The position numbers were made by a program, and so were the translations under genes. The notes under the pieces were generated by a model that worked only from the letters and a program-made list of their open reading frames with translations, ran no database searches and was not told the origin of the DNA. Source: an uncultured delta proteobacterium (lineage in GTDB: Bacteria; Desulfobacterota; Desulfobacteria; Desulfobacterales; UBA2156). Taken from it: a stretch of DNA of 64,000 bases. Shown piece after piece: positions 36,559 through 58,880 of this stretch; within the stretch, counting starts at the first letter, position 1; the number at the start of each line of letters is the position of its first letter. The stretch is taken from the NCBI GenBank assembly GCA_963736855.1, contig CAVTQK010000006.1:97370-161369 (forward strand), read 5' to 3'.

Positions 36559-37485
36559 TTAATTCACTTTAGGGCGAGGCAAAACTTTGGCCATTTCGGC
36601 GATTTCCGGGACCTTATGCTCCCACTCAATGGCCATAAGGTGCACGCCAGCCACCCCTTTCAATTCCTTAAACTCTTCGATCTGCTCCACGGCCATCTTG
36701 ATTCCTTCCTCCCCCTGTTTTTTCTTGTCCACCCCCTGCAGGCGGCTGATGATCTCGTCAGGAACGTCCATCCCGGGAACCTTGTTCTTCATATACTTGG
36801 CCATGCCGATACTTTTCATGGGAGTGACCCCCGCCAGGATATAGGCTTTTTCCGTCAACCCCATGTCGTTGGCTTGTTTGATGAATTCCCGGAATTTATT
36901 CATGTTGTAGATGCATTGGGTCTGAATGAAATCGACGCCGGCGGCGACCTTTTTGGCCAAACGATGCACCCGCCATTCAAAAGGATCGGCGAAGGGGTTC
37001 GCAGCTGCTCCGATAAACATTTTTGGAGCCCCGTCCAGATCGGCGCCGCTTAGGAATTTCCCCTCGTCCCGCATCTTTTTGACCGTAGCGATCAGCTGTA
37101 TGGAGTCGATATCAAAAACTCCTTTGGCCTGAGGGTGATCCCCGAATTTGCAGTGGTCTCCGGACAGACATAAAATATTACGTATGCCGTGCGCGTAGGC
37201 ACCCAGGATGTCCGACTGCATGGCAAGGCGATTCCGGTCCCGGCACACCATCTGGTAGTTGGGTTCGATTCCATCCTGGATTAAAAAAATGCAGGAAGCC
37301 CAGCTTGACATTCGGACCATTGCGGTCTGGTTATCCGTGATGTTGACCGAATCGACATTCCCCTTCAAGAAAGCGGCCTTTTTTCGCACTTCTTCGGCGT
37401 TTGCACCCCTGGGTGGGCCCAATTCGCCGGTGAATGCAAAATGCCCTGCCCTTAAAACCTTTTCCAAATTGCTTCCTGATTTCAT
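36559..37485 (-). CDS. metF: Methylenetetrahydrofolate reductase (copy 1)
   Basis: GELGPP, NITDNQTA, CRDRNR, LCLSGDH, FIQTQ, GVHLMA. Confidence 0.93.
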   Translation of the reverse strand: MKSGSNLEKVLRAGHFAFTGELGPPRGANAEEVRKKAAFLKGNVDSVNITDNQTAMVRMSSWASCIFLIQDGIEPNYQMVCRDRNRLAMQSDILGAYAHGIRNILCLSGDHCKFGDHPQAKGVFDIDSIQLIATVKKMRDEGKFLSGADLDGAPKMFIGAAANPFADPFEWRVHRLAKKVAAGVDFIQTQCIYNMNKFREFIKQANDMGLTEKAYILAGVTPMKSIGMAKYMKNKVPGMDVPDEIISRLQGVDKKKQGEEGIKMAVEQIEEFKELKGVAGVHLMAIEWEHKVPEIAEMAKVLPRPKVN

Positions 37486-37539
37486 GGTCGTCTTTCCCTG
37501 CTATATTCCATGTTTAACGATATAAATCCCTGCCGAACA

Positions 37540-37776
37540 CTACTTCTTCTGCCCGGCGTTATCGGGTTTCGAGTATCCCGGTTGGACCAGGGTTCGAGGT
37601 CCGATGTCCTGCCAGTCATTGGCGGGATGCACCTTCATCATCAGATCGAGGCGCCCCTGCCTGGAAAGACGCTCAAAAATCATAAACCAGGCACAAGGCT
37701 GATCCGGATTGATTTCGCAGCTCCCTTTGTTGGTACCTCCGCAGGGACCGTTATACAATCCCTTGGCGCACATGGT
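37540..37776 (-). pseudogene. metV: MetV, 3' remnant only
   Basis: TMCAKGLYNGPCGGTNKGSCEINPDQPCAW matches the C-terminus of 46469-47140; similarity stops at ~37776, next to an IS end. Confidence 0.88.
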
Positions 37777-37799
37777 GTTATCACGGTCACACACTTCCA

Positions 37800-38045
37800 G
37801 GTAGTATATAATCTTTTGTGTAAATTTTAAAAAAGGGTAAAAAAAGGGCGCTTTTTCTTTAAAAGGGTTTTGGCAAAAAACACCATAAGAAAGGAAAAGC
37901 ACCCATGTAAGTAGAAATTAGCGTACCTGAGTTTGTAAATATTTTCAAGGAAATCCAGCAGCAGCCGGAGAATATTTTTGAGATGATCCGCGTAGAGATC
38001 AAAGAGAGCGTCGGTCAATACCTGAGCTAACTGATGGATTTGGAA
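37800..38045 (+). mobile_element. IS256-family remnant (left end plus decayed transposase N-terminus)
   Basis: End GGTAGTATATAATCTTTTGTGTAAA; manual translation M*VEISVPEFVNIFKEIQQQPENIFEMIRVEIKESVGQYLS*LMDLE with two stops. Confidence 0.65.
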
Positions 38046-38944
38046 AAGCACTCATGCAAATGAATCTGCAGCTGCATCACGTCGTCAGCGATATTACAGG
38101 TGCCACGGGAATGAAAATCATTCGTTCAATCATTGCGGGAGAACGTTCCGCCAAAAAGCTTGCCTCCTACCGAGACGTGCGCTGCAAAAAGTCCGAGCAG
38201 ACTATCTCCGATGTACTAACCGGCAACTATCGTCCAGAGCACGTTTTTGCCCTTAAACAAGCTGTTTCGCTATATGATTTCTATCAGGGGCAGATTGCCG
38301 AGTGTGATAAAGAAATTGAAGCGATGTTATCAAAGCTGAAAACTGAAAAGCCTGCACCGAACCAGACCCTTCCCAAGGCGCGTCACCGGACCAAGCAGAA
38401 AAACGAGCCTGATTTTGCCCTTCGCCAGTCGCTTTACATGTTGGTTGAAGTGGATCTGACTAAAAAAACGGAATCGGTGCATACACGGCCTTGCGTCTTA
38501 TTGCCGAATGCGACAACGATATGGGCAAATGGCCGACATTAAAGCATTTTGCATCGTGGCTCTGCCTATCACCCGGCAATAAAATATCCGGCGGCAAGGT
38601 GCTGGCGAGCAACAAGCGTAAAACCAAGAGCAGGGCAGCAACACTTTTTCGAATAGCTGCGGTGAATGTCGGAAAAACCCAGACCGCTTTAGGTGCATTT
38701 TATCAACGTTTATCCACCAGAATCGGCAAGGCAAAAGCCGTCACTTCCACGGCCAGAAAGCTTGCCGTCTTGTTTTACAATGTGATGCGGTACGGAACAT
38801 CATTTGTTGAAACCGGTTCTGATTATTACGAAAAACAGTATATAAAAAAAGTTCTGCAAAACCTGTCCCGTCGAGCAAAAGATCTGTGCTTCGAATTGAT
38901 AAAGATGAAGGGACATGCTGCTGCTCCGTGAATGTTTCTTAGGA
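38041..38944 (+). mobile_element. IS110-family transposase remnant, 5'-truncated and frameshifted
   Basis: KALMQMNLQLHHVVSDITGATG, FASWLCLSPGNKISGG, TARKLA; frame change at A-run ~38462. Confidence 0.88.
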
Positions 38945-39883
38945 AAGCCACCGCGTACTTTGCCAAGGAGTCGCTGCACGGCATGCGGTGATGGAGGAGA
39001 TGCGACTCGACTATCCGTTGGGGTGTTGTGCCGGGTATTTGGGGTATCGGCCAGCGGATTTCATGCCAGGCGCAGCCGTGGGCCTTCTCGGAGGGCGCGG
39101 GAAGAGGGACAGTTGGAAACTGAGATCCGGGCCGCCCACAAGCGTACGCGGGAGACCTACGGTCCGGAGCGTTTGCAGCGGGATCTGGCGGCTCACGGAG
39201 TGCATATCGGGGTACATCGGATTAAGCGCATTCGTCGCAATCTTGGCCTGCGGTGCAGGCAGAAGCGAAAATTCAAGGTTACCACCGACTCTCGGCACAG
39301 TCTGCCGGTGGCCGACAATCTGTTGAACCAGCGGTTCCAGGCCGAGGCACCCTCCCGGGCGTGGCTGAGTGACATGACTTATATTCCCACCGATGAGGGG
39401 TGGCTTTACCTGGTCGGCCACAAGGACTTGTGCACCCGCAAGATCGTCGGCCATGCCATGGGCGAGCGCATGACTCGGAATCTTGTGATCGAGTCGCTGC
39501 TGCGGGCTGTGGAGACCACAGGATCCTGTACCGGTCTGCTTCATCACTCGGACAAGGGGAACCAGTACTGCTCTCACGAATACCGAAAGATGCTCGATTG
39601 CCTCGGGATGACGGTCTCGATGAGCGGAACCGGGAACTGTTACGACAATGCCCCTATGGAGAGCTTCTGGGCAACGCTTAAGACCGAGTTGATCTTTCAT
39701 CGACGTTTCGCTACCCGACTCCAGGCCATTCGGGAAATAACCGAATACATTGAAGTGTTCTACAATAGACACAGAATTCAGAAAAAGCTGGACTATTTTT
39801 CACCAGCGGCATTCGAACACCGATTCTATGAACAGCGGTTAGCAGCATGATAAATTGGTGTCCACTATTGACGACCGATACCA
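38945..39883 (+). mobile_element. IS3-family remnant (orfA tail, orfB integrase, right end)
   Basis: KATAYFAKES, TYG, WLSDMTYI, HHSDKGNQY, GNCYDNAPMESF; end GGTGTCCACTATTGACGACCGATACCA. Confidence 0.9.
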
Positions 39884-39955
39884 AGATATGGAATTCTTCA
39901 AACTTAAAAATTTTCGCGCTCCACGAGGCAAAGTAAGCTTTAGTCGGATGAACCG

Positions 39956-40105
39956 AAATTTCACTTGACAGTGCATATTTCTCCACGATATCAAAAATTT
40001 GTAAGCCTTGACAACTGCAGGTTCCCATATCTTGGGGTGCAGATGATGCCAAAATATATTCCATGCCCGCACTTAATCCGCCCAAAAAAAAGCGAGTTGT
40101 TATCA
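39956..40105 (+). promoter_or_regulatory. Conserved promoter/leader element, copy 1 (function unknown)
   Basis: Ungapped match at offset 18530 to 58486-58635; TTGACA, hairpin CTGCAG..TCCCA-TATCT-TGGGG.GCAG, block CCCGCACTTAATCCGCC. Confidence 0.65.
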
Positions 40106-40256
40106 ATTTTTCTTGACTTATGGAGGCGTATTGATTGAGAATTAAAACTTATGTTATCTGGTTTGCTGTCAGGGTGTTGATCAAGCCAATCGACGCCCAA
40201 ATGAATAAGGATATTGATGTTAACCGCCTTAAGATTAATTTTTAAAGGAGTTTTAC

Positions 40257-43200
40257 ATGACCACTAAAGTTCATGGATCTGTAATGGTAGTAGGCGGCGG
40301 AATCGCTGGAATGCAATCCGCCCTGGATCTCGCCAATTCTGGATACTATGTGTATCTTGTTGAAAAGTCCGCAGCCGTCGGAGGGTTGATGTCCCAGATT
40401 GACAAGACCTTCCCCACAAACGACTGCGCCATGTGAATTATCTCACCCAAACTGGTCGAGGTCGGCCGGCACCTCAATATTGAACTCATTACAACAGCAG
40501 AATTAATTGATTTGCAAGGCGAACCTGGGCGGTTCAGCGCTCGGATTCGCCAGGAACCCCGCTTCGTAGACCTGTTAAAGTGTACAAGCTGCGGGGAATG
40601 TGCTAAAGTTTGCCCAGTGTCACTCCCCAACGAATATGATGAAAACCTCTCCCAAAAGCACGCCGCTTACAAACAATATGCCCAGGCTATTCCGGGAGCT
40701 TATGCGATCCAAAAGGCGGATAAAGCGCCTTGCCGTTTAGCCTGCCCTGCTGGTTTGAATGTTCAGGGATATGTCCAGATGGTTGGCCAGGGTAAATACA
40801 AGGAAGCTCTGGAAATCATCATGGAAGATCTTCCCCTGCCCGGAGTACTCGGCAGGATTTGCCCTCATGGGTGCGAAGAAGCTTGCAGGCGGTGTCAAGT
40901 TGATGAGCCGGTTTCTATTCGTAATCTTAAGCGCCTTGCAGCAGATCAATTTGATCCGCGCAAAATAGAAATCAAATGCTTGCCAAGAAGGGAAGAAAAG
41001 GTTGCAATCATTGGATCGGGTCCGGCAGGACTTTCAGCAGCTTATCAATTGGCTCGAAAAGGAATCCTTTCGACAATTTTTGAAGCACAGCCAAAACCAG
41101 GTGGAATGTTGAGATTGGGTATCCCCGATCATCGTCTGCCTATCGAAGTTCTGGATAGAGAAATAGAAGTCATTACCAATCTGGGTGTAGAAATTAAAAC
41201 CAATTCACCTCTCGGACCGGACTTGACCGTTGATGACCTTTTTAAGAAGGGCTATAAAGCGGTTTACTTGGCAATAGGCGCCCATAAAGGGATTGAACTG
41301 GGTATCCCTGGTGAAAAAGCAAAAGGCGTCCGCCAGGGCGTTGAATTTTTACGTGAAGTAAACCTTGCAGGCAAAACAACAGTTGGCAAAAAAGTTGCTG
41401 TTATCGGAGGCGGAAATGTTGCCATAGATGTTTCCCGCGCAGCAGTTCGATTAGGTGCGGAGAAGGTGATGATCATCTATCGCCGGACAAGAGCCGAAAT
41501 GCCTGCCTGGGAAGAGGAAATTCAAGCGGCGGAATCAGAAGGCGTTGAAATTACATACCTTTCAGCACCTCAGGAAATTCTTATTGAGGATGGCAAAATC
41601 GTTGGGGTGCGCTGCATCCGGATGGAACTTACAGAACCGGATTCTTCAGGACGAAGAAGACCTGTGCCGGTTCCCAGATCGGAATACGACATTGAAATCG
41701 ACCAGATTATCCCTGCAATCGGTCAACGTGCGGACCTGAGTTCTATCGAAGATGTTCCGGATTTGAAATTTACACGGTGGGGAACAGTTGAAGTTGATCC
41801 CATCACTTATGCAACAGGAAAAGAAGGTGTATTTGCAGGCGGTGATCTGCAAAGCGGTCCATGGATCGCAATCGGAGCAATTGCTACCGGGAAGGAAGCT
41901 GCCGAATCCATTTTCAGATTCATAGAGGGTCGTGACATGGCAGAAGGAAGGGAAGCCATTACCAATGAAAATCCTGTTTACCAACCCATTCCTGAAAATG
42001 AGCCTCGTAAAGCCAGGGCAAAAATGCCGCATCTTCTTTTAGAAGAGCGGAAAGACAGCTTTAAAGAAGTTGAAATGGGGTTTGATGAGACTTCGGGAAA
42101 AGAAGAAGCCAAACGATGTTTGAATTGCGGTTATTGTTGTGAGTGTTTTCAGTGTGTGGGCGCATGTCTTGCAGGCGCTATCGATCATAGCCAGGTTCCG
42201 GTGGAAAGAACCATTGATGTCGGTAGCGTAATTCTTTCACCCGGAACTGAAGTCTTTGATCCTTCAAAGATGGATGAATTTTACCATTATAAAACAAATC
42301 CCAATGTCATGACGGCATTAGAATTTGAACGTATTTTAAGCGCTTCCGGACCAACCATGGGACATCTGGTTCGACCCTCGGATCACAAAGAACCGAAGAG
42401 AATCGCATGGCTTCAATGTATCGGTTCAAGGGATACCAACAGATGCGGAAACAGTTATTGTTCTTCTGTTTGTTGCACCTATGCAGTCAAAGAGGCGATG
42501 ATCGCCAAAGAACATTCCCACGGCGATCTGGATTGCGCTGTATTCTATATGGATATCCGGACATTCGGAAAAGATTATGAAAAATATTATAACCGTGCTC
42601 GTCATAAAAACGGTGTTCGGTTTGTTAAAGCCAGAGTTCATACCATTAACGAGGAGCGGGACAATAAAAATTTAATCATCCGATATGCAGATGAGACCGG
42701 TCAAATTCAGGAAGAAATTTTTGACATGGTGGTTCTGTCGGTTGGGTTGGAAGTACCCAAGTCAACAATTGAATTGGCAAAACGGCTCAACATTGAACTC
42801 AATCCCCATAATTTTGCTGTAACTCCGACATTTGCCCCGGTTGAAACCACAAGACCCGGCGTTTATGCTTCCGGTATCTTCCAGGGACCAAAGGATATTC
42901 CGAGTTCGGTTACTGAAGCAAGTGCTGCGGCGTGCGCTGCGGGCACATTCATTGCCGAAGGTCGCGATACGCTAACTAAAAAAGTCGAAGTTCCTGAAGA
43001 AATTGATGTTGCAAATAAGGAACCGCGGGTAGGTGTTTTTGTTTGTAACTGCGGCATAAATATTGCGGGTGTTCTGGATTGTAATGCATTGGTGGAGTAT
43101 GCCAAGAGCCTTCCTAATGTGGCTTTTGCCAAGCAAAACCTCTTTACCTGCTCCCAGGACTCTCAGGAGATAATGAAGAAAGATATCGAGGAGAACAATC

Positions 43201-44687
43201 TTAACCGTGTAGTGGTGGCTGCATGCACCCCTAAAACCCATGAAGCCATTTTTATGAGCACGATGGAAAGTATCGGTTTAAATAAGTACCTCTTTGAAAT
43301 GGCTAACATCCGCAATCAGGATTCCTGGGTTCATGCAAATAATCCGGATCTCGGCACGAAAAAAGCGAAAGAATTGATTCGCATGTCGGTGTCTAGAGCT
43401 GCCAGTTTAAATCCCCTCAAAGAAAAAGTAATCCCAGTAACCAAGCGGGCGCTTGTCATCGGAGGCGGGATTGCCGGTATGAATGCCGCGCTTGGGATTG
43501 CACAACAGGGGTATGATGTCGCTCTTGTGGAAAAGGAAAAAGAACTCGGTGGAATGGCAAGAAATCTTTTTCATACCATTGAAGGAGATGACATCCAGGC
43601 ATACCTCAAAAAATTGATCGGAGAAGTGAAAAACAAATCCAAAATCAAAGTATATACGGACGCCCGTATTACTGAATTTAAGGGCTTTAAAGGAAATTTC
43701 GTCACAACAGTCACGGTTGGAGGAGAAAAACAGGAAATTAAGCACGGCATAATTATTATCTCAACCGGAGCTAAAGAATATCGACCCAAGGAATTCCATT
43801 ATGGAGAAGATCCACGCGTTGTTACTCAGTTGGAACTGGGCAAACGATTGGAGGAAAAGGGTGCTTCAGATATTTCAACAGCGGTCATGATTCAATGTGT
43901 TGGTTCTCGGAATGAAGAAAATGAAAATTGCTCTCGTATCTGTTGCCAGAATGCAATAAAGAATGCTTTGACAATTAAAAAAACAAACCCGGATTGTCAG
44001 ATTTTTGTGCTTTACCGGGATATGAGAACTTACGGATTTTTGGAAGATTATTACCTAGAAGCCAGAAATCGCGGCGTCATATTTATTCGTTTTGAGCAGG
44101 AAGAACCACCGGTCGTCAGTAGCTCATCCGAAGGTCTTGTTGTACGAGTGAAGGATCATGTGTTGCAGAGAGACATAGAGATTTCAGCAGATATTCTAGC
44201 GCTGAGCGCAGGCGTAGTTGCAGCGGATACCGATGAACTCAGCGGCATCATGAAACTGAATCGAAGCCCTGAAGGCTTTTTTATAGAAGCCCATGTGAAA
44301 CTCAGACCTGTGGACATGCCCAGCGAGGGTATTTTCCTCTGCGGTACTGCCCATTCGCCGAAACTGATATCTGAAACCATTGCCCAAGCGCAAGCAGCCG
44401 CTTCTCGGGCGATGACATTCCTTGCCAAGTCAGAACTCAAGCTTTCTGCAATCACAGCTAAAGTTGATACGGATCATTGTGTGAAGTGTTTAACATGTGT
44501 TCGTTCATGCCCATTTGGCGTGCCAGTGTTTAATGAAAAGGAAAAGGTTATTGAAATTGATGAGGCGCTCTGTCATGGGTGTGGCATTTGTGCGTGTGTT
44601 TGTCCGAGGGAAACAATACAACTCAGTTACTATGAGGATGATCAAATAACCAGTAAAATTGACGCATTGTTGGCGGAGGGGATGTAA
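40257..44687 (+). CDS. hdrA: Large selenocysteine-containing HdrA (HdrL-type) with GltD-like insert and duplicated HdrA module
   Basis: ATG 40257 with [13 protein letters not shown]...[13 protein letters not shown](40434)-IISPKL in frame with ORF 40512-44687; SECIS-like CTGGTCG-AGGT-CGGCCGG; GltD motifs [23 protein letters not shown]; two QCxGSR/CSxxCC motifs. Confidence 0.92.
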
Positions 44688-45110
44688 TGGCAGAATTTGA
44701 ACCTAAAATTATTGCATTTTGCTGTGACTATTGAGGATATTCAGCCGCGGACCTGGCAGGTTCCATGCGACTGGAATATCCAACGAACGTCAAAATAATC
44801 CGGGTGCCTTGTACCGGAAAAGTTGATGTCATGCACCTTCTAAGGGCGATTCAAAAGGGCGCAGATGGCGTTTATTGCGTGGGCTGTTTGGAAGGGGCTT
44901 GTCATTATAACGCAGGTAACCTGAGAGCCCGGGAGCGTGTTGAATATGTAAAAAAACTTCTCAGAAGAGGTAGGGTTGGAGGGTGATAGGGTCAGGATGT
45001 ATAATCTGACATCGGGTGAAGGTCCAACTTTTGCTGCATATGCAAAAGAAATGACCGAAAATATCAAAGCGCTGGGACCCAATCCATTAAAGAAATACAC
45101 AACAACCTAA
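44687..45110 (+). CDS. mvhD: Selenocysteine-containing MvhD [2Fe-2S] subunit; one +1 frameshift near 44963
   Basis: [18 protein letters not shown](44732)-GYSAADLAG, IRVPCTGKV, GADGV, GCLEGACHY; C-terminus EEVGLEGDRVRM...KALGPNP in the +1 frame. Confidence 0.9.
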
Positions 45111-45127
45111 ATAATATGGGATCAACT

Positions 45128-46449
45128 ATGGCACAGAAAGAAGTCATTAAAATCGGGGGAAAGAAGAAGAGCAAGTTCTTGGACAAAGTCAGGGAGATCC
45201 TTCCTGAAGAAGGACACCTGAACATGTGTCTGACGTGTGGGCTCTGTTCCTCGGGATGCCCTGCGACAGGGTTGGAAGGGCTTGATCCGAGGAAAGTGCT
45301 TCGCATGGCTGCTCTTGGAATGGATGAAGAATTGTTAAGCACTACAATGGGCATGGATGTGCAGTATGTGCTGGCGATGTATGGTCGCATGCCCTATGAA
45401 AATCGATATCCCACAATTGGTCTTTAATATGCGGAAAAGCTGGCCTAGTAGAAACTCGACCCAAAGGCATATTAGGTTCATGTGATATGGCGTTAAGAAG
45501 CGATACGTGTAGCGCCATGGGAGCGACTGAAGAAGATTTTGAATTTGTTGTCAATGATGTGCTGGAAGAATATCGGGAAGGACAACCTGAACTTGCAGAA
45601 ATGCAGGCTCCCATCAACAAGCAGGGTGCAGAATTTTTCTTGAATCAGAATTCAAGAGAGCCGGTTACAGAACCCGACGAAATGGTTCCGCTATGGAAAA
45701 TCCTTCATCTGGTTGGCGCAGATTGGACATATGGAACCAAAGGCTGGGCTGCGGAAAACTATTGTTTATTCATAGCAGATGACGAGGGCTGGAAGCATAT
45801 TGTCCAGGTCAAAGCAAAAGCGGTAGATGATCTGGGCTGTAAAGTCTGGCTCAATACGGAGTGAGGGCACGAACTATTTGCAGTCCGGGCTGGACTGAAA
45901 AAATTCAACATTCCTTACAAGTTTGAAATCAAAAGCATCATTCAATATTATGCGCAATGGATTCGGGAAGGCAAACTCAAGGTTAATTCAGAATGGAACA
46001 AAGACCTTAAAATCAAGTTTACGGTTCAGGATCCCTGCCAATTAGTGCGTAAAAGTTTTGGAGATCCGGTAGCCGAAGACCTTCGCTTCGTGGTTAAAAC
46101 AGTTGTGGGTGAAGAAAATTTTATTGATATGCAACCGAACCGATCCAACAATTACTGTTGCGGCGGAGGGGGTGGTTTCCTTCAAGCCGGTTTACCGGAA
46201 GCCCGTCGAGCTTATGGCAAATTAAAATTTGAGCAGATTATGGAAACAGGTGCTCATTATTGCATCACACCTTGTCATAATTGCCATGCGCAGGTGCACG
46301 ATTTGTCCGAACATTATGAAGGAGGCTACCATACGGTTCATTTATGGACAATTATTTGCCTTGCACTGGGTATTTTGGGGCCAAAAGAAAGAGAATATTT
46401 GGGAGACGACCTGAAGGATATGATGGTTTTTCATCCTGAAATGGAATAA
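45128..46449 (+). CDS. Selenocysteine-containing HdrD/DsrK-like Fe-S (CCG-domain) oxidoreductase; two +1 frameshifts (~45345, ~45448)
   Basis: CLTCGLCSSGCP; shifted frame WMCSMCWRCMVACP; NTE-TGA(45862)-GH where the family has ECGH; QDPCQ, NYCCGGGGG, PCHNC; SECIS-like CAGTCCG-GGC-TGGACTG. Confidence 0.85.
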
Positions 46450-46468
46450 GAATAATACTGGAGGGAAT

Positions 46469-47140
46469 ATGATCATCGCAAAAAGGAAACCCTTTGAAGA
46501 GATAAAGGAAATGGTTAAGGGCTATAAGAAAGTCCTTAACGTTGGCTGCGGAACTTGCGTGGCGGTTTGTCTGGCAGGGGGCGAAAAAGAGGTTGATGTA
46601 CTAAATGCTGAACTGGACATGGCAAGAAAAATCGAAAATAACCCCATCGATATCGGTTCATATACAGTGGAACGTCAATGTGACAGTGAATACATGGAAG
46701 TTCTGGACCCCATAGTAAAGGATTATGAAGCCCTTCTCACCATGGCGTGTGGAGCTGGAGTTCAGTTTTTGGCGGAGAGATATCCGAAAATTCCGGTTTT
46801 CCCTGCAGTGAATACCACGTTTATTGGAGTCAATAAGGCAGTGGGATGGTATGAAGAGCGATGTCGTTCCTGCGGAAGTTGTGTTTTAGGGATAACGGCA
46901 GGTATTTGTCCGGTAACCATGTGCGCCAAAGGTCTTTACAATGGCCCGTGTGGCGGCACAAATAAAGGCTCATGTGAAATCAATAAGGATCAACCCTGCG
47001 CCTGGTATATGATATGGGAAAGATTATCGGGTCAAGGTCGACTCAATAATATAATTGATATAGTCCCGATTCAGGAATGGCAGAATCAGACGCCAAGAAC
47101 TGTGATCCAGCCCGGGTATAAAAAACCGGAGACTGCATAG
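46469..47140 (+). CDS. metV: Methylenetetrahydrofolate reductase Fe-S subunit MetV
   Basis: GCGTCVAVCLAGG, ERQC, ACGAG, CRSCGSC, CPVTMCAKGLYNGPCGG. Confidence 0.9.
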   Translation: MIIAKRKPFEEIKEMVKGYKKVLNVGCGTCVAVCLAGGEKEVDVLNAELDMARKIENNPIDIGSYTVERQCDSEYMEVLDPIVKDYEALLTMACGAGVQFLAERYPKIPVFPAVNTTFIGVNKAVGWYEERCRSCGSCVLGITAGICPVTMCAKGLYNGPCGGTNKGSCEINKDQPCAWYMIWERLSGQGRLNNIIDIVPIQEWQNQTPRTVIQPGYKKPETA

Positions 47141-47218
47141 ATATGTAATTAAATCGAGGTAAGATATGTTTAATGGTTTTTTTCAACCAAATACGTTTAA
47201 ACATAAGAGGAATCCGAG

Positions 47219-48157
47219 ATGAACGCTGAATTAAAAGCAGGAAGCAATTTAGAAAAGGTTCTAAAAGCAGGTCACTTTGCCTTTACCGGTGAGCTTGGAC
47301 CGCCGCGTGGTGCCGATACCCATGAAGTAAGACATAAAGCATCCTTTTTAAAAGGCAATGTAGATTCGGTAAATATCACAGATAATCAGACCGCTGTTGT
47401 ACGCATGTCAAGCTGGGCAGCTTGTATTGTTTTACTTCAGGAGGGTATTGAACCCAATTACCAGATGGTATGTCGGGATAGAAACCGCCTTGCAATGCAA
47501 AGTGATATTTTAGGGGCAAGCGCGCTGGGCATAAAAAATATTTTATGTTTATCCGGCGACCATTGTGTATTCGGAGACCATCCTAATGCCTTGGGGGTAT
47601 TTGATATTGATTCAATGCAACTCATCGGCATGGTTAAAAAGATGCGTGATGAAGGAAAATTTCAAAGCGGCGCTGAATTGAAACCACCGCCCAAGATGTT
47701 CATCGGCGCAGCCTCAAATCCATTTGCTGAGCCCATTGAATGGCGAGTTTACCGCCTTGCGAAAAAAATCAAAGCCGGGGTGGACTTCATTCAGACCCAG
47801 TGCATCTATAACATGGAGAGGTTCCGGAAGTTTATCCAACAAGCCAATGATATGGGATTGACGGAAAAGTGTTATATCCTGGCTGGAGTTACACCCATGA
47901 AAAATGTCGGGATGGCAAAATACATGAAGAACAAGGTTCCGGGAATGGATGTGCCCGATGAAATCATCAAGCGACTCCAGGGGGTTGATAAGAAAGATCA
48001 GGCAGAGGAAGGAATTAAAATGGCCCTGGAACAGATCGAAGAATTCAAAGGAATGAAAGGGGTTGCAGGCGTGCATATGATGGCGATCGAATGGGAACAT
48101 AGAGTTCCCGAGATTGCTGAACGCGCCAAAGTTCTCCCTCGTCCTATAATGCAATAA
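47219..48157 (+). CDS. metF: Methylenetetrahydrofolate reductase (copy 2)
   Basis: Same motifs as, and collinear with, 36559-37485. Confidence 0.93.
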   Translation: MNAELKAGSNLEKVLKAGHFAFTGELGPPRGADTHEVRHKASFLKGNVDSVNITDNQTAVVRMSSWAACIVLLQEGIEPNYQMVCRDRNRLAMQSDILGASALGIKNILCLSGDHCVFGDHPNALGVFDIDSMQLIGMVKKMRDEGKFQSGAELKPPPKMFIGAASNPFAEPIEWRVYRLAKKIKAGVDFIQTQCIYNMERFRKFIQQANDMGLTEKCYILAGVTPMKNVGMAKYMKNKVPGMDVPDEIIKRLQGVDKKDQAEEGIKMALEQIEEFKGMKGVAGVHMMAIEWEHRVPEIAERAKVLPRPIMQ

Positions 48158-48187
48158 TCAATTTTTTATTTTTTTCGTTTAATACCA

Positions 48188-48225
48188 TAAAACCCGGGTT
48201 TTTAATAAAGCCGGGTTTTTGTTAT
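48188..48225 (+). terminator. Intrinsic terminator after metF copy 2
   Basis: ATAAAACCCGG-loop-CCGGGTTTTTGT. Confidence 0.6.
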
Positions 48226-48389
48226 TTCAACCGAGCTATGTTCGAAAGTTGTGTTTAGCTGATCTTTAACAGTTCAATTTTTATTCTTCAATAAAAACGG
48301 GCAACTACAGGTTGTAAAAATGTTCTTGGCACTACCCCCATGCCAAAATTGCAAAAATTCCGGATTAAATTTCGCGAATCGTGGGCGGC

Positions 48390-49203
48390 ATCGCCATACC
48401 GCTTTTCTTTGGCCATGGCCAAAACCGCCTGTCTTCCCACCGGTAACAGCCGATGGGCCGGTTATTTGGGGCCCGGTTTTCCGTTTTCAAGGGGCAACCC
48501 TTGTGTCAACCGGCCGCGCCACCGGGTCACCCTACGGCGTTGGATCGCCCACATCCTGCATGTCCGGCTCACGGGGGTCCCTTCTTCCTTTCCCTGCACG
48601 GTGCTGGAAACAATCTCCCGTTTTCGATCCGATTCAAGCCAACACCCTTCTATCTTTCCCAGGAACCCCCATTCATTTTTTTTCTTAAGATGGCCACCTC
48701 CAGAGCCATCTCCGCCAACACCCGCTCCTTTTCCTCCAGTTCCTGTTTTAAGGCCTCGTATTGTTCCAAAGAGACCATCTTCTTTTTGGCCCCAGGTCGC
48801 GGAAAGACGCTCCAAAGCTCCTTCTTTCACCTTCTGCCGGATCCGAGCCAGATCCGTCGAGTACAGACCCTCCCGCCGTAACACCTCGGCGGCAAGCACA
48901 TCGCCTCGCTGGGCTTCTAAAAAGATCTGGAACTTTTTCTCCGGCGATAAAAACCGCCGTGACTTCTTGTCATCTTGAACACCGTTTGAATTCGCAATCA
49001 TGGTCTGCTTCTCCTTCCCAGGGTGGCTGGTGGGGAATTCCGGTCGCCCTGCGGACTCCCTCCATTCCCCACCAGCGCCTCATCCTACCATGTAGCGTAA
49101 TTCAATCCAACTTTTGGGACATAAATTCAGAAACGGAGGGCTACGCCGAACTAAATTGCGCAAGCGATTTTTTCAAGCAGACCCCCGTCTCTGGCGGTTG
49201 ACA
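48390..49203 (-). mobile_element. Decayed two-ORF IS (IS3-like HTH orfA plus start of orfB); ends uncertain
   Basis: RRFLSPEKKFQIFLEA...EVLRREGLYSTDL; A8 run at 48676-48683; PVSRTCRMWAI..RRVTRWR; no catalytic core seen. Confidence 0.7.
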
Positions 49204-49274
49204 CCCGATTCGATATTGTTTATAGATTTTCAAAAGTTGAATCCATCACCATCACAATGAGAAGGGAAACGACC

Positions 49275-49742
49275 ATGCAGTTTAAAAATGTGGGAGAGAT
49301 CATCGATTTTGCCATGGAAAAGGAAAAAGAGGCCGTGGAATTCTATCGCTTTCTGTCCAAAAAGGAATCCCTGTCCGGATCCAAGGAAATGTTTGCAGAC
49401 TTCGCCAAGGAAGAGCAGAAACACTTTGACATGCTTTCCAAAATCAAGAGCGGCCAGACGGATAAGACGGTCTCGGAGTACAGATTCAAATGGATTCCGG
49501 ACATCAAGCGAAGCGATTATGTGATAGAAACGGCCTACCAGAAAGGGATGGGATACAACGAAATCCTCATGCTGGCCATGAAACGGGAAGAAAAGGCCCT
49601 GGCACTTTATAACGACCTTTTAAAAAAGTCAGAAACCGATGCCGCTAAAAAGGTATTCAAGATCCTGTGCCAGGAAGAGGCCAAGCACAAGCTGGCGCTG
49701 GAGACCCTGTACGACGACTACATGGCCAAAATGGGGGATTGA
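49275..49742 (+). CDS. Rubrerythrin/ferritin-like diiron protein
   Basis: Two E..A..FY/LY ... EExxH halves. Confidence 0.88.
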   Translation: MQFKNVGEIIDFAMEKEKEAVEFYRFLSKKESLSGSKEMFADFAKEEQKHFDMLSKIKSGQTDKTVSEYRFKWIPDIKRSDYVIETAYQKGMGYNEILMLAMKREEKALALYNDLLKKSETDAAKKVFKILCQEEAKHKLALETLYDDYMAKMGD

Positions 49743-49915: not shown

Positions 49916-50410
49916 TCATGGATTTTCCATCCGCATCCGGATGTCTTCGATCTTTTCCTTAACGGCGATATATCCCTCCTCAATGGCCTGTTCCACGCGG
50001 TCGAACTCCAGCATCTTCATCTCGCCCAGGCGCGGCTGGATGAGCACATCCGGAGGATCCACGGCCAGGTTGATTCCGGCGATGCGCTGCTGCACGATAT
50101 TGACGGAGGCCAACACGGTTTCCACGATGTCCGGAGCTTCGCTTTCTCCTTTGAGCATTTCACCGATTTTAGCTTTGAAACCCGATTCGGCATGATCATA
50201 GTAAGCCGCTAATTTTTTTAAAAGCTCCCTTTTAAGTTCGTGGGGGATGCCGTGTTTTTTTTCTTTGACCTTTCTTTTGCGTGGAAAAAGACGGCTGGTC
50301 AAATCGACGGCAACCCCGGCCTCTTCGAGCGCTTCAATGGCCCCGATGTGAGCCCAGCCCCGGGAAGCGCCGCTGCCCAATGCCAGACCGATCTTCTTTC
50401 TCGATGCCAT
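49916..50410 (-). pseudogene. Patatin-like phospholipase (RssA-type) with in-frame internal deletion
   Basis: GLALGSGASRGWAHIG start and PPDVLIQP...EFDR...AIEEG end, but no GxSxG or DGG; 164 aa. Confidence 0.8.
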
Positions 50411-52028: not shown

Positions 52029-53368
52029 GTCATTTCCTTGAGCAGTTGGTTGGCGGCGGTGAGCATGGGATCCCAGACCGGACTGAAAGGGGGTGCATAC
52101 GCCAGATCAGATTGGTAAAACTCGGCCACGGTCATTCGGGCATGCAGGGCCACGGCCGGGGCATCAATCCGGTGGGCGGCTCCTTCTTTTCCAACCATCT
52201 GGACGCCCAGCAGGCGGCCGGAAGCCTTGTCACCCACCATGTGGACCCAGAGGGTGGATGCCCCGGGATGGGCATGGGCCCGCGAGCGTGACTGAATGGT
52301 GGTCATCACCGGTTGAAAACCGGCAGCTTCGGCTTCCTTCCCGCTCAGGCCGGTTCGGGCTACTTCCAGGTCAAACACCTTGAAGATGGCGGTTCCGGCG
52401 ATACCCGGCAGGGCGGTCTCCTTACCGCACACCGTGTCTGCCACAGCCCACCCGGCCCGATTCGCCCTCAGAGCCAAAGGAATATAGGCCCTTTTCCCGG
52501 TTACGATGTGGAATGCATCGGCGCAATCGCCGGCGGCGAAGATGTCCGGATTCGAGGTCTTCAGATACTTGTCTACGGCGATGGCACCCTGGGGCCCCAA
52601 TTCAAGCCCGGCTTCTGCCGCCATTTGGCTGTTGGGTGATACCCCGACGGCAATCAAAACCATGTCCGCGATCAGGACCCCGTCAGAGGCAACAAGCCGA
52701 AGTCCTTTCTCAGCGGTTTCAATGCGTTCCACCCTCTTACCTAGATGCAACCGGACGCCGCGGTTTTCCACCTCCTCCCGGACGACGCCAACCAAATCCG
52801 GCGGCATCCAGGGCAAGAAAACCGGCCGGGGCTTGATCATCTCGACGCCGATTTCCCGGGTATGCAGTGCCTCCGCCATCTCCAGGGCAATATACCCCAT
52901 ACCGATGATGGCGGCTTTTTTTACACAGGTGCCGGCGATCCAATCCTTGAGTTTCCGGCCATCTTCGAGGCTTTTGAGAACCAGGACTCCCGGCAGGTCT
53001 TTTCCCGGGATATCCGGAACTATGGCGGATGCGCCTGTGGCGATCAGCAGCTTGTCATAGGCTTTTTGAAACCGATTCCCATCCATATCCGTACCAAAGA
53101 CCTGCCGATTAACCGGATCGATCCGTTCCACAAAATGCCCGGTATGCAAGTCGATCCCCTGCTTTTTCCGGAAAACATCGGCGCGGCGAACCACTAGATC
53201 GTCCATCGACCGGTTCGGATCGGCGATATTATACGGCATGCCGCAGGCGCTGTAGGAAACATCCCGGGTTTTTTCGAAAACAGTGACGGAAAGCTCGGGT
53301 TGGTTGCGTTTGGCGCGACTGGCAGCACTCATGCCGGCTGCATCCCCTCCGATGATGACAAATTCCAT
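52025..53368 (-). CDS. CoA-disulfide reductase / NADH oxidase family flavoprotein
   Basis: [34 protein letters not shown]. Confidence 0.9.
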
Positions 53369-53533
53369 GGGTACTTCTCCTTAAAAGTAGTAACATTTAG
53401 ACAAGCTGGATCGATGCATCTGAAAATCATTGCAGATATAAGCCCGAATGTCAAAAACTTGAAAATCTTCCAATCCATACACCTAAACATCCACCATCTT
53501 GATATTCATCCACTTCCTGTATACAAATTTATT

Positions 53534-56500
53534 ATGGTCCAATCCCTTTCCGATCGCATTAACCTCATTCGCCGACGCCTTCGCTTGACCATGTCGGCCG
53601 ACCGACCCGATTTTTTGGGCAAAATCAACAGGGTGAAAAATGCCCTGCTGCACCATCCGGATCCAGAGGTTTTGGAAAAAGAATTATCCGCCATCGAACG
53701 CCGCCTTGAAGGCTCTATCAAGCAGCAGCTTTATCGGAAAACCCATCGGCCCTCGCTTAGATACCCTGTGGATCTTCCCATCCTGGCGCACCGGGAAGAG
53801 ATTATCCAGGCCATTCAAAAGAATCCCGTGGTGATCGTGTCGGGAGAGACGGGCTCCGGCAAGACCACCCAGATCCCCAAATTCTGTCTGGAAGCCGGGA
53901 GAGGGCTCTCCGGCGTCATCGGCTGCACCCAGCCCAGGAGGATCGCCGCCATCACGGTTTCCCAGCGCATCGCCGAAGAGATGGGTGAACCCATGGGCCG
54001 ATCCGTGGGGTACAAGATCCGGTTCCAGGAACAAACCGGAAAAGACCTTTTCATTAAAATCATGACCGATGGGATCCTCCTGGCCGAAACGGCCCGGGAC
54101 CGGCGGCTTTTGACTTACGACACCCTCATCATCGACGAGGCCCATGAACGCAGCCTCAATATCGATTTCATTCTCGGATACCTGAGAAGCCTTCTCCCAA
54201 GGCGACAAGATCTCAGGCTCATAATCACGTCGGCAACCATCGATACGGAAAAATTCTCCAAAGCCTTTGATGACGCCCCGGTGGTGGAGGTTTCCGGCCG
54301 CACCTATCCGGTCGAAGTCCGCTATGCCGTGGATGAAGAAGAGGATAACGAGGATACACCTTATACTGAAATAGCCTCAGAAGCGGTAAAGAACCTAGTT
54401 CGACAAGGTGCTTTCGGAGACATCCTTGTTTTCATGCCCACTGAACGCGATATCCGGGAGACCTGCGAAATCCTTACAGGGATGCGCCTAAAAAAGACCA
54501 CGGTGATGCCTCTTTTTGCCCGCCTTTCTGCCGGCGATCAAAAAAAGGTATTTGCGGCAATATCCGGAAGGAAGATCGTCGTGGCCACCAACGTGGCGGA
54601 AACTTCCATCACCATCCCCGGCATCCGTTACGTGATCGACACGGGTTTGGCCCGCATCTCCCGGTTTTCACCGTCTTCCCGCACCAACGCTCTCCCGATC
54701 CTTCCCGTCTCCAGAAGCAGCGCCGATCAGCGGAAAGGGCGATGCGGACGGATGGAAGAAGGAGTTTGTATCCGCCTCTTTACAGAAACCGATTATCTAT
54801 CCCGGCCTCTTTACACGCCCCCGGAGATCCTTCGTTCGAACCTGGCTGAGGTGATCCTGAAGATGATAGCCTTCGATATGGGGGATCCGTCGGATTTCCC
54901 GTTCATCGACAAACCTTCCCCCAAATGGATCGCCAGCGGATATGACATTTTAACGGAGCTCGGAGCCATTGAAAAAAACCCTTCCGGCAAAACGGTTTTA
55001 ACCGAAACCGGCCGCAAGATGGCCAGAATGCCCCTGGATCCGAGGATCTCCAGAATGCTGCTGGAGGCAAAGAAAGAAAAATGTCTGGAAACCGTGGCCG
55101 TCATCGCGGCTTCCCTGAGCATTCCGGACCCCAGGGAAACCCCTCTAGGCAAGAAACAGGAGGCCCGGGAAGCGCACAGCGAATTTGTCCATCCGGACTC
55201 CGACTTCTTGACCTTGCTCATCCTTTGGAATCGCTTTCAGGAAAATGTTGGAAAAATCGGGAGCACTTCAACGATGAGCCGGTTCTGCCGAAAGCATTTT
55301 CTGTCTTTCAGACGGATGCGGGATTGGCAGGATATTCACTCCCAGATACTGGACATCCTCGATGAAACCGGTCTTCTCAAAACTGTAAAAGCGGCCCCCA
55401 TCACCACGGACGGAGCCCTCCAAATGGATAGCGAAGCTTACAGCAGGATCCACCGATCCATTTTAAGCGGCTTTATTTCCAACATCGCTTTTCGAAAAGA
55501 AAAAAACATCTTCGTCGCCGCCAAGGGAAAGGAAGTAATGCTCTTCCCGGGATCCGGGCTTTTCAATCGGGGCGGGGAATGGATCGTTGCAGCAGAAATC
55601 GTCGAAACGTCCAGGGTTTTTGCCCGCACGGCAGCCAACATCGAAAGCACCTGGCTGGAGCCCGTCGGCAAGACTCAGTGCCGTTACACATATGACGAGC
55701 CGTTCTGGTCGAAAGGCAAGGAAGCGGTGATGGCCATGGAAAGGGTGCATCTATACGGGCTACTGATCGAGCCCGGCCGTCCGGTTCCCTACAGCCCCAT
55801 CGACCCGGAAAAAGCCGGCGCCGTTTTCATCCGGGATGCCATTATGGCCGGAAATATGAAATATACCCTCCCGTTTCTGATGCACAATCGGGAGCGGATC
55901 CAACACGTGGAGAACCTGGAACACAAGCTTCGACGGCGCGATATCAAAGTCTCAGACTCAGAGATCTTCTCATTTTATTCAGAGCGCCTGAAGAGGGTGT
56001 TTGATCCGAAATCCCTGAAAAAACTGATCCTCGAAATAGAGTCGGATTCTTTTTTGCGCATGACCATCGAGGATCTGGTCAACTATGTCCCGAGTGCGGA
56101 AAGGCTTTCCGAATTTCCCGACACCCTCTTCCTGGATGAAAGATCCTTCCCCTTGACTTATCGCTTCAACCCGGGAGAAGACGATGACGGGATAACGCTC
56201 CATGTCCCCTATTCCTTCGCCCCGGTTATCCCCGAAGAGAAACTGGAATGGCTGGTTCCAGGTTTGCTCCCTGAAAAAATCGAATGCCTGGTCAAAGGGC
56301 TTCCCAAAGAATACCGAAAATCACTTCCGCCCCTGTCCTCTTTCCTGGATATCCTGCCGCAAGAAATACCCCTTTTGGATTCATCGCTGACGCGCGCCTT
56401 GAGTCGCTTCATCCAGGAGCGCTTCGGTGTTTCCGTTCCGGAAGACGCCTGGCCCCTGAAAACCCTTCCCGAGCATCTGCGCATGCGGATCGCTTTTGAA

Positions 56501-57512
56501 ACACCGGACGGCAGGTGCATCCATTCCGGGAGGGCGCCGGAAGCCCTCAGATTCGATCCGGAAACCCGGAAGGCATTCAGGCTCCCTGAAGATGTGAGGG
56601 AAGCGAAAATGAAACGGGAGAAAAATGGGATTTACCGACTGGATCTTTGGGGATCTTCCGGAAACGGTTACTTTCAAAAGCCGGGATCAGGGGGAGTGGC
56701 TCTTCTTTCCGGCGCTTGAAAAGGATCCAAGACAGGCCGGAGTCCGATTGCGACTCTTTTCCTTTTTAGATGAAGCAAAGGCATCACATCCGAAAGGTGT
56801 CGCAGCCCTTTTTGAGGTGCGGCTCTCCAAACACTTGAAGGAATTGGGCCGATCCATCGCCTCGTCAAAATTGCCGGGTTATGGTGCTGAACGCTTCGAC
56901 AGAAAAAATCGAATTAGCGATCAGGTCCTCCGGCGCGTTTCATCCGATCTTTTCCGACAATCCATTCGAACCCGAATGGACTTTGAAATCTCATCCGAAA
57001 CGATTTCCACTTTGATCCACTCCAGAGGCCTTGAAATCTTTAAAAAAGCCGTGGGAGTACTTGAAGCCCTAGACGCGGCCTGGAAAAACCTGCACACTCT
57101 GGAACGCGCTCATCATGCAAACGCGGGCATCCTGGCGTTTCTTCAAGCCCTTCGAGCAGATCTGGATACACTGGTACCGGAAACCTTTATTCGGCTTTAT
57201 GACGACCAGCGGCTCTTGCATCTGCCGCGCTACATTCAGACCGTAACGGTTCGCGCAAAAAAGGGGGTTCTCGATTTGAAAAAAGATCAGGAGCGCTCGA
57301 AACAGGTATCATATTTTTCGGCAGAGCTGAATAAGATGCTCAAAAGTCTGGCACCTTCTACTTCCGATGAGAAACGAAAGGCCACAGAAGAATTCTTCTG
57401 GCTCATCGAAGAGTTCAAAGTCTCCCTGTTCGCCCAGGAGCTGAAAACCCCCTTCCCCATTTCGGTTAAAAAGCTTCAATCCCGCATAGAAGCGATTCGG
57501 AAAATACCCTGA
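53534..57512 (+). CDS. hrpA: ATP-dependent RNA helicase HrpA; one +1 frameshift near 56621-56633
   Basis: GETGSGKTTQ, DEAH, SAT, QRKGRCGR; C-terminal EEFKVSLFAQEL in ORF 56625-57512. Confidence 0.92.
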
Positions 57513-58485: not shown

Positions 58486-58635
58486 AAATTCCGGTTGACA
58501 GCACATTCACCTTCGGATAGTTGAAAATTCATGAGCCTTATCAACTGCAGATTCCCATATCTTGGGGCGCAGATGATGGAAAAACACAATTCAGTCCCGC
58601 ACTTAATCCGCCAACAAAAAAACGACTTCTATCAG
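58486..58635 (+). promoter_or_regulatory. Conserved promoter/leader element, copy 2 (function unknown)
   Basis: Ungapped match to 39956-40105. Confidence 0.65.
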
Positions 58636-58636
58636 T

Positions 58637-58880
58637 CCCCTTAACCCGTAACCATGCCGTTGCAATGATCCGGCAAAGCAGAGGACATAAACTCAATTCG
58701 GGATACAGATATCAGCCGCCGGCAGATGAACAGGCTCTGGCAGACTGCATTCTGACGGTGGCCAATATGGCTGAAACCCGTCCTGAAATCGTCGAAATCG
58801 ATCTGAATCCGGTCTTTACATATCCGTATGGAATATATTGGTCGTTGATGCTATAATTATTGAAAAGGAGAAAGGTTACT
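58637..58880 (+). pseudogene. 3' remnant of ADP-forming acyl-CoA synthetase (ATP-grasp domain)
   Basis: PLTRNHAVAMI...GYR..PPADEQALAD...PEIVEIDLNPV; VVDA continues in another frame. Confidence 0.75.

Follow-up and report, generated by a model that had tools for sequence, protein, structure and literature searches.

A predicted triple-selenoprotein operon in a Desulfobacterales genome, a probable variant of the Hdr-type methylene-tetrahydrofolate reductase

The Hdr-type, or fourth type, of methylene-tetrahydrofolate (methylene-THF) reductase is described here from four papers (PMC9430772, PMC5861303, PMC6295475, PMC6085437). In Moorella thermoacetica and Sporomusa ovata the MetFV–HdrCBA–MvhD enzyme has MetF, MetV, MvhD and an HdrA-type flavoprotein encoded together. 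The HdrA of M. thermoacetica (162.8 kDa) contains an N-terminal thioredoxin reductase (TrxR)-like domain interrupted by a GltD domain, followed by an HdrA-like part at residues 922–1487, and pull-downs from S. ovata show that MetVF touches HdrA, HdrB and MvhD (PMC9430772). ‘Met’ clusters have been counted in 8 genomes of Proteobacteria (PMC6085437). Here we describe an operon with the same four components in an uncultured delta proteobacterium of the order Desulfobacterales (assembly GCA_963736855.1). The operon occupies positions 40257–48157, forward strand, of a 64,000-nucleotide (nt) stretch of contig CAVTQK010000006.1 (positions 97,370 to 161,369), hereafter the window. It is an uncharacterised variant of the known Hdr-type methylene-THF reductase, and it differs from the Moorella-type enzyme in its HdrBC-like subunit and in its predicted content of selenocysteine (Sec).

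All five genes lie on the same strand and are separated by −1, 5, 19 and 78 nt:

40257..44687, + strand: hdrL, 1476-amino-acid (aa) HdrA–GltD–HdrA fusion flavoprotein with predicted Sec60 (TGA 40434–40436), identified from Pfam and NCBIfam matches and from alignment to chain A of PDB entry 5ODC (5ODC_A)
44687..45110, + strand: mvhD (FlpD family), predicted Sec16 (TGA 44732–44734), frame broken by one extra base near 44963
45116..46449, + strand: CCG gene, an HdrC/HdrB fusion (HdrD/HmcF/TmcB-like), predicted Sec in ‘NTEUGHE’ (TGA 45862–45864), two frame breaks, near 45343–45346 and near 45455
46469..47140, + strand: metV, 223 aa, DUF5981 (Pfam 4.7e-35), 65–79% identical to MetV of relatives
47219..48157, + strand: metF, 312 aa, MTHFR (Pfam 1.6e-38), 75–83% identical in relatives

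The metF and metV genes adjoin, and mvhD and the hdrA-type gene belong to the same transcription unit, as judged from gaps of −1 to 78 nt. Pfam detects Pyr_redox_2, Fer4_20 and ferredoxin domains in HdrL, FlpD in MvhD (2.3e-34), and Fer4_8 (split across frames) and CCG in the product of the third gene. A five-gene operon had been proposed in a preliminary description made from the letters of this DNA, and its coordinates and gene identities are borne out by translation, Pfam and NCBIfam. Re-annotation with UGA read as Sec, which that description had suggested, leaves hdrL as an open frame; mvhD and the CCG gene still do not read open, owing to frameshifts that it had missed. Promoter-like and terminator-like sites in 39800–49300 were no more frequent than in shuffled sequence (17 versus 15.0 and 11 versus 10.0, respectively).

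HdrL aligns with the HdrA of 5ODC (E 4e-180) as two modules. Residues 10–153 and 626–846 correspond to HdrA 147–290 and 292–510, and residues 921–1075 and 1324–1471 correspond to HdrA 2–156 and 500–649; residues 921–1476 form a complete HdrA-like part (module 2). The intervening residues 156–633 constitute a GltD/NfnB/DPD-like module for FAD, NAD(P)H and two [4Fe-4S] clusters, with matches to the chains of 9bov, 8oh5, 4ylf, 5jca and 2vdc. Given the layout of the 5ODC_A alignment, the GltD module sits between the two cluster motifs of the ferredoxin domain that is inserted in HdrA. The length of 1476 aa, the two HdrA-like modules and the GltD-like module with its GGGNVA...YRRT signature had all been recognised in the preliminary description and are confirmed by Pfam, NCBIfam and the 5ODC alignment. 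The ‘YRRT’ motif may point to a preference for NADPH. That an NAD(P)H module is built in had also been put forward as a variant feature, a view that does not hold because the same TrxR–GltD–HdrA layout is published for M. thermoacetica HdrA (PMC9430772).

The two modules differ at the flavin. A Glu/Lys pair, E356/K409 in HdrA, has been taken as diagnostic of a bifurcating flavin, and Moorella is reported to keep both pairs (PMC9430772). In module 1 of HdrL the pair is present as E691 and K745, kept in 50/50 and 51/51 relatives, respectively. In module 2, unlike in the Moorella protein, the Glu is lost: G1195 occupies its position, where relatives have Ser (26), Gly (14), Glu (7), Ala (5) or Thr (1) (n = 53), and the Lys (K1235) is kept in 46 of the 53.

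Three in-frame UGA codons at Cys-equivalent positions had been noted earlier, and all three (40434, 44732 and 45862) are confirmed. The codon of the CCG gene is TGA in 80/80 related loci, and those of HdrL U60 and MvhD U16 are TGA in 51/51 matches each at an identity of at least 55%. Among 40 more distant MvhD paralogues the U16 position carries TGC or TGT in 32 and a Ser codon in 8. HdrL U60 lies in the context ‘DCAMUIISPK’, and its aligned counterpart in the HdrA of 5ODC is the second Cys of ‘NDCSIC’ (Cys197 by count). In the CCG protein, the Sec position falls within an E-C-G-H motif that is invariant in all 40 full-length homologues of the Cys form. Each TGA is followed by a hairpin resembling a selenocysteine insertion sequence (SECIS):

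40452..40469, + strand: SECIS-like hairpin of hdrL, CUGGUCG-AGGU-CGGCCGG, with a 23-nt run that is invariant in 30/30 sequences
44749..44763, + strand: SECIS-like hairpin of mvhD, GGACCU-GGC-AGGUUC, inside an outer stem at 44735–44781
45881..45897, + strand: SECIS-like hairpin of the CCG gene, CAGUCC-GGGCU-GGACUG

The hairpins start 17–19 nt from the first base of their UGA. Third codon positions are invariant more often inside the hairpins than outside them (hdrL, 6/6 versus 1/16; mvhD, 4/5 versus 1/17; CCG gene, 2/6 versus 0/16). The mvhD hairpin folds at −21 kcal/mol (z −2.45 versus shuffles), keeps its inner pairs in 30–31 of 31 sequences and includes one outer pair with 6 compensatory changes. 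For the CCG hairpin, 97.3% of alignment cells pair, versus 8–38% when the partner strand is slid; 5 cells are compensatory, and the covariation score was reached by none of 500 shuffles. The genome also encodes the Sec machinery: a profile search found selA (617 bits), selB (381) and selD (374), all above their cut-offs, and tRNA-Sec (selC) lies on contig C21. A genome without selABCD, which the preliminary description had named as a reason to abandon its proposal, is thus not what was found. Taken together, the codon conservation, the hairpins and the machinery strongly support the assignment of all three in-frame TGAs as Sec codons. The selD gene (C15:107386–108306) has one in-frame TGA of its own and would encode a Sec-containing selenophosphate synthetase.

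The CCG protein contains two [4Fe-4S] motifs and one complete CCG motif, CX39CCX37CX2C (C310, C350, C351, C389 and C392). The first CCG motif is reduced to C219 and E251-U/C252, where the placement of the Sec within this motif follows from motif spacing and not from a residue-by-residue alignment to HdrB. All of these positions are invariant (C219, E251-C/U252-G253-H254, C310, C350, C351, C389 and C392), and the Cys219/Sec252 pair may act on a disulfide. An AlphaFold model of an intact orthologue (predicted local distance difference test, pLDDT, 83.7) matches EtfD of Mycobacterium smegmatis (TMq 0.68), HdrB (TMt 0.58–0.64 across the listed HdrB chains) and HdrC; a sequence search of solved structures with the CCG protein returned weak HdrB matches only (best E 0.0017). 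Cys forms in public databases, for example those of Desulfonema magnum, Desulfosarcina ovata and Desulfobacter postgatei, are named only ‘(Fe-S)-binding protein’ or ‘Fe-S oxidoreductase’.

This protein had initially been called DsrK-like, a name that proves too specific. Against the NCBIfam models, an intact orthologue scores 181 bits for HmcF (NF045711; cut-off 750), 174 for TmcB (NF045724; 735) and 118.5 for DsrK (NF045796; 400), and the genome has true members of all three families elsewhere (HmcF 923 bits, TmcB 835, DsrK 737). The neighbours of the CCG gene are hdrL, mvhD, metV and metF, with neither a dsrMKJOP context nor an adjacent gene for a membrane partner. A phylogeny of the protein had been recommended; in a quick IQ-TREE maximum-likelihood tree, in which branches are long and the root serves for drawing only, the MetF-linked proteins (Sec and Cys forms) form one tight group apart from the HmcF/TmcB/DsrK group (SH-aLRT 96). 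As judged from its sequence, the CCG protein is a single HdrC+HdrB fusion in a separate clade and not a DsrK. The nearest outlier to the MetF-linked clade is a 408-aa CCG protein of the same genome, encoded on contig C13 (L118:3547–4770) after an hdrA–mvhD pair, with an in-frame TGA in ‘WPEUGH’ and without a link to metF. A further cluster on contig C8 (C8:92000–104000; L124) comprises an HdrL-like gene, mvhD, an unknown open reading frame (ORF), a CCG gene (Sec form, product 75% identical, frame-broken) and hdrA, without metVF; this cluster type is apparently shared by same-genus genomes.

The association of the CCG gene with metF is conserved well beyond this genome. The protein has 546 confirmed relatives in contigs representing one genome per species; the best 80 of these (80–87% identical) were taken, and 47 of the 80 loci, those flanked by 7 kb or more upstream and 2.3 kb or more downstream, were used for the counts of neighbours that follow. 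Within this set of Desulfobacterales loci, metF is present in 39/47, with metV–metF directly downstream of the CCG gene in 22 and metF directly upstream in 8. The mvhD gene is directly upstream in 31, and an hdrA-type gene lies upstream in 35, 10 of which have the GltD module. The order hdrA (of any kind)–mvhD–CCG–metV–metF occurs in 21 loci and the exact order of the window, with a GltD-bearing HdrL, in 5. The same gene set is thus kept together through at least four gene orders, and the conserved neighbourhood, in which MetVF is joined to HdrA-type, MvhD and CCG proteins, disposes of the concern raised at the outset that the order might not be conserved. Five loci without hdrA beside the CCG gene were annotated. 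In three (L017, L078 and L091) the CCG gene is convergent to a gene for a Sec-type formate dehydrogenase, and in two (L021 and L037) it stands beside an HrpA-type helicase gene. At L017 (7683–10167) metF comes immediately after the Sec-type CCG gene, without an intervening metV; upstream there are NfnAB-like genes and downstream, in convergent orientation, a formate dehydrogenase alpha gene (Sec, split). At L037 there are, in addition, a Usp gene and a CoA-disulfide-reductase-like one.

The surroundings of the operon suggest that it was acquired. Directly upstream lie remnants of insertion sequences (IS), and beyond them a second, truncated metVF pair:

38054..39850, + strand: IS110- and IS3-family transposase remnants, 5′-truncated, directly upstream of hdrL (NCBIfam and Pfam)
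36562..37776, − strand: second metF (308 aa), with a second metV of which the C-terminal third remains, cut off at the IS junction

The IS110 remnant covers only profile positions 150–217 and 236–342, in two frames, and the IS3 remnant only 100–369 (NCBIfam). The second MetF is 84% identical to the operon copy and the MetV fragment (residues 150–223) 70%. In this fragment (37776–37555) only positions 39–95 of the DUF5981 profile are matched, and homology to metV ends at 37776. The missing part is found on contig C12 (6.2 kb), which carries a GltD-less hdrA, mvhD and then MetV residues 1–150, continued as residues 150–223 at 37776–37555 of the window; at the other end of C12 the first 121 nt match window positions 49281–49161 at 98%. 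Because both ends fit the flanks, the reverse complement of C12 is an alternative to window positions 37777–49160.

The GC content of the operon is 45.2% (7th percentile), where 8-kb windows of the genome average 51.4%, and by tetranucleotide distance the operon stands at the 92nd percentile; the composition of C12 is typical of the genome. Five same-genus genomes that were searched contain CCG proteins at only 74–78% identity (one at only 29%), the level of the genome's own C8 paralogue, while those of other lineages reach 81–87%. Further copies in the genome are metV–metF on contig C9 and hdrA–mvhD–metV on C12. The operon therefore probably lies in a strain-variable, horizontally acquired segment. 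A composite transposon was considered as its carrier and rejected, as a search for flanking IS repeats, direct or inverted, found none. Repeats of other kinds occur nearby. One of about 157 nt on C12 (L125:461–617) has dozens of copies genome-wide at 90–99% identity and is probably a miniature inverted-repeat transposable element. A second, of about 100–150 nt with some 25 partial copies on other contigs at 73–83% identity, lies just upstream of hdrL (window 39950–40112). Two gene fragments were also seen in the window, one of a patatin-like phospholipase (49919–50410; profile positions 214–293 of 301 only) and one of an acetate-CoA-ligase-like gene (58521–58853; 132–195 of 665 only).

Three single-base frameshifts interrupt the operon. 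In mvhD the Pfam FlpD profile is split over two frames (positions 1–83, then 86–123), and DNA alignment shows the window to be one base longer than 5/5 relatives near 44963 (site 1). The CCG gene needs three successive frames, among which its two [4Fe-4S] motifs and its CCG part are distributed, with the ferredoxin part itself split over three; here the window is two bases longer than 6/6 relatives, near 45343–45346 (site 2) and near 45455. Among relatives, MvhD is an intact ORF of 137–148 aa in 32/32 loci examined, CCG orthologues with a clear start span 432–440 aa with a single TGA, and the ends of the CCG gene share one frame in 78/78 related loci in which both ends are present. Programmed +1 frameshifting was rejected as an explanation because the extra bases occur in no relative.

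Public short reads bear on two of the sites. Contigs from four environmental runs, all from other samples than the source assembly, were compared. One contig of run X1 (151 nt, 97% alike) is one base shorter at 44963, and contigs of runs X1 and X2, 93–95% alike, are each one base shorter, at 45346 and 45343. A piece from run X4 is 100% identical over 134 nt, its alignment ending at 44958, just 5′ of site 1. When metagenome contigs were scanned for the exact pattern across site 1, neither the version with the extra base nor the one without it was matched. Since the extra bases are found in no relative and near-identical short-read contigs lack them at two sites, we read them as probable assembly (consensus) errors, in which case the organism's own mvhD and CCG genes are probably intact. 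A strain-variable, probably horizontally acquired segment would also fit lower read depth and more consensus errors in this region. Split genes occur elsewhere in the genome too (hrpA, a tuf-like copy, a dnaE-like copy, and Hdr paralogues on contigs C5, C8 and C20); one of them lies in the window:

53300..57509, strand not given: hrpA, two overlapping ORFs covering NCBIfam profile positions 16–998 and 1003–1282, a single frame break outside the operon

A second EF-Tu-like gene outside the window (C6:75422–76301) consists of two ORFs at profile positions 1–132 and 170–266, a possible frame break.

In the mechanism that we propose, the MetF flavin and the Fe-S clusters of MetV would exchange electrons with HdrL through the [2Fe-2S] protein MvhD, by analogy with the Mvh–Hdr structure and the S. 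ovata pull-downs. The GltD module of HdrL would exchange hydride with NAD(P)H. The flavin of module 1 is the candidate site of bifurcation, as only this module keeps the Glu/Lys pair, and the fused HdrC+HdrB-like protein, in place of HdrB and HdrC, may provide the high-potential thiol/disulfide branch. This protein most likely reduces a disulfide or persulfide carrier, for which DsrC is only a candidate. The potential for methyl-THF oxidation is about −200 mV. As a sulfate reducer that carries DsrK, HmcF and TmcB, the host is likely to use the enzyme in the direction of methyl-THF oxidation. Where the Wood–Ljungdahl pathway runs oxidatively, as in a complete-oxidising sulfate reducer, methyl-THF would be the donor and its electron pair would be split between NAD(P)+ (uphill) and a thiol/disulfide acceptor (downhill). 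A bolder version, which we regard as improbable, would make the Sec-bearing HdrD-like subunit a selenosulfide-forming reductase of oxidised DsrC or another sulfur carrier, with HdrL splitting methyl-THF electrons between NADP+ and the sulfite-reduction machinery. If true, it would couple the Wood–Ljungdahl pathway's methyl branch directly to dissimilatory sulfate reduction and would identify the second partner, long sought, of Hdr-type methylene-THF reductases.

On balance we favour, with moderate confidence, a joint explanation in which the locus represents, in Desulfobacterales, the Hdr-type (‘type IV’, Moorella-type) methylene-THF reductase operon, its products would work as proposed and the frameshifts are most likely assembly errors. 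Several observations weigh against it. As assembled, mvhD and the CCG gene cannot yield full-length proteins. Of the three sites, the environmental contigs of the four runs cover sites 1 and 2 only, and the best public run contains 0.15 of the sampled words. Errors are not everywhere, as rpoB, rpoC and dnaE (about 11.5 kb) are unbroken, and three breaks within 500 bp beside 6 kb of intact hdrL, metV and metF are odd whether the breaks are errors or true mutations. Single-sequence folds of the hdrL (z 0.01) and CCG (z −0.61) hairpins are no better than shuffles. In 8/47 loci metF is not within reach, and there are CCG genes that lack an accompanying hdrA or mvhD. The Hdr subunits of S. ovata did not co-purify with MetVF, which alone was ferredoxin-dependent (PMC9430772), and the Moorella complex gave no NADH-dependent methylene-THF reduction (summarised in PMC6295475).

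It is possible, though we think it doubtful, that the operon is real but recently inactivated, a decaying copy in which the frameshifts are true mutations within a horizontally acquired, IS-flanked cassette whose job is done by other metVF and hdrA–mvhD sets. The truncated IS110 and IS3 remnants and the truncated second metV at the left junction fit such a history, as do the atypical composition, the greater similarity of the CCG proteins of other lineages than of same-genus ones, the copies on C9 and C12, and the wholeness of the long essential genes rpoB, rpoC and dnaE. Yet hdrL (4.4 kb), metV and metF are unbroken, the catalytic motifs, Sec codons and hairpins are all intact, and a dead operon is not predicted to gather three breaks in 500 bp. 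The short-read contigs, 93–100% alike, lack the extra bases or end their alignment there. Furthermore, the alternative hdrA–mvhD–metV set is deleted in the C6 arrangement, so that selection on the cassette is to be expected.

A second alternative questions the complex. The CCG protein with HdrL–MvhD might be a disulfide reductase in its own right, soluble and linked to NAD(P)H or ferredoxin, which would be a counterpart of HmcF/TmcB/DsrK in the cytoplasm and merely co-transcribed with a plain ferredoxin-dependent MetVF. HdrA–MvhD pairs followed by Sec-containing CCG proteins do occur without metF on C13 and C8 of this genome, the 8 loci of 47 without metF and the formate dehydrogenase neighbours at three of the five annotated loci (L017, L078 and L091) point the same way, and MetVF of S. 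ovata was purified alone in ferredoxin-dependent form (PMC9430772). We nevertheless consider this arrangement unlikely. The metF gene is next to the CCG gene in 39/47 loci through at least four gene orders, one locus (L017) has CCG–metF without an intervening metV, and pull-downs from S. ovata connect MetVF with Hdr subunits (PMC9430772).

It is very unlikely that segment 37777–49160 is an assembly chimera, in which DNA of another Desulfobacterales population was joined at mobile-element sequence and the true locus is that on C12: the reverse complement of C12 does fit the same place (98% over 121 nt, with the join of MetV residues 1–150 and 150–223), its composition is typical where that of the operon is not, and the frame breaks are concentrated in the segment, but two chimeric joints would be required within one contig, no repeat is common to both, and a real insertion or replacement variant in the population explains the same facts.

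The operon bears on how complete-oxidising sulfate reducers drive methyl-THF oxidation and on what serves as the second redox partner of the Hdr-type enzyme. The exchange of HdrBC for a single Sec-containing HdrD-like thiol/disulfide module offers a concrete candidate for that branch, testable in cultivable Desulfobacterales. Gene callers split all three selenoprotein genes and the assembly adds three frameshifts, so automated annotation would give fragments or pseudogenes for what is probably a central catabolic enzyme. In the literature searched, which for PMC2702500 comprised text but neither figures nor supplements (where the surroundings of metF1 may be shown), no description was found of an HdrL–MvhD–HdrD-like–MetVF unit in Desulfobacterales.

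Compared with the Moorella-type enzyme, the HdrL described here shares a TrxR-like module into which a GltD FAD/NAD(P)H domain is inserted and a complete HdrA-like part that begins at about residue 921 (922 in Moorella; PMC9430772), and in both the pyridine nucleotide partner is probably NAD(P)H. In the Moorella type HdrB and HdrC are distinct subunits, and HdrB carries two complete CCG motifs, whereas here a single 432–440-aa fusion has one complete motif, and Sec is predicted in three subunits (HdrL, MvhD and the CCG protein).

Counterparts of these selenoproteins have been described before. In Desulfobacterium autotrophicum HRM2, HdrL is likewise a large fusion of HdrA and glutamate synthase that precedes mvhD and often contains Sec; this residue is found in HdrL1/L3, MvhD1/2/3/5 and HdrD4, and soluble HdrD proteins have HdrC- and HdrB-like domains (Strittmatter et al. 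2009, PMC2702500). The text of that paper, figures and supplements aside, links HdrL to DsrABC and NADH oxidation, not to MetVF. HdrL/HdrABC have also been detected in Syntrophobacter proteomes. HdrA, FrhD (MvhD/VhuD) and an ‘Fe-S oxidoreductase (GlpC)’ were catalogued in 2006 as selenoprotein families of Deltaproteobacteria, including glpC–hdrA–frhD operons (Zhang et al. 2006, PMC1794560); in the portion of the catalogue cited here these operons are hydrogenase-linked (glpC–hdrA–frhD–frhG–frhA), whereas the present one is linked to MetVF.

DsrK, HmcF and TmcB, the cytoplasmic CCG subunits of membrane complexes in sulfate respiration, resemble the CCG protein in having two [4Fe-4S] and CCG-type domains and are its best NCBIfam matches, and the conserved E-C-G-H cysteine is the position of the predicted Sec here. 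They differ in that the present protein scores far under their cut-offs, falls in a separate clade and has no adjacent membrane partner gene. A structural reference is the MvhAGD–HdrABC complex of Methanothermococcus thermolithotrophicus (PDB 5ODC), to whose HdrA the HdrL modules align and on whose HdrB and HdrC the CCG model superposes. Unlike that complex, the present system has no hydrogenase, combines two HdrA-like modules in one chain with GltD at the position of the inserted ferredoxin, and fuses HdrB and HdrC into a protein whose first CCG motif is reduced to a Cys and a predicted Sec.

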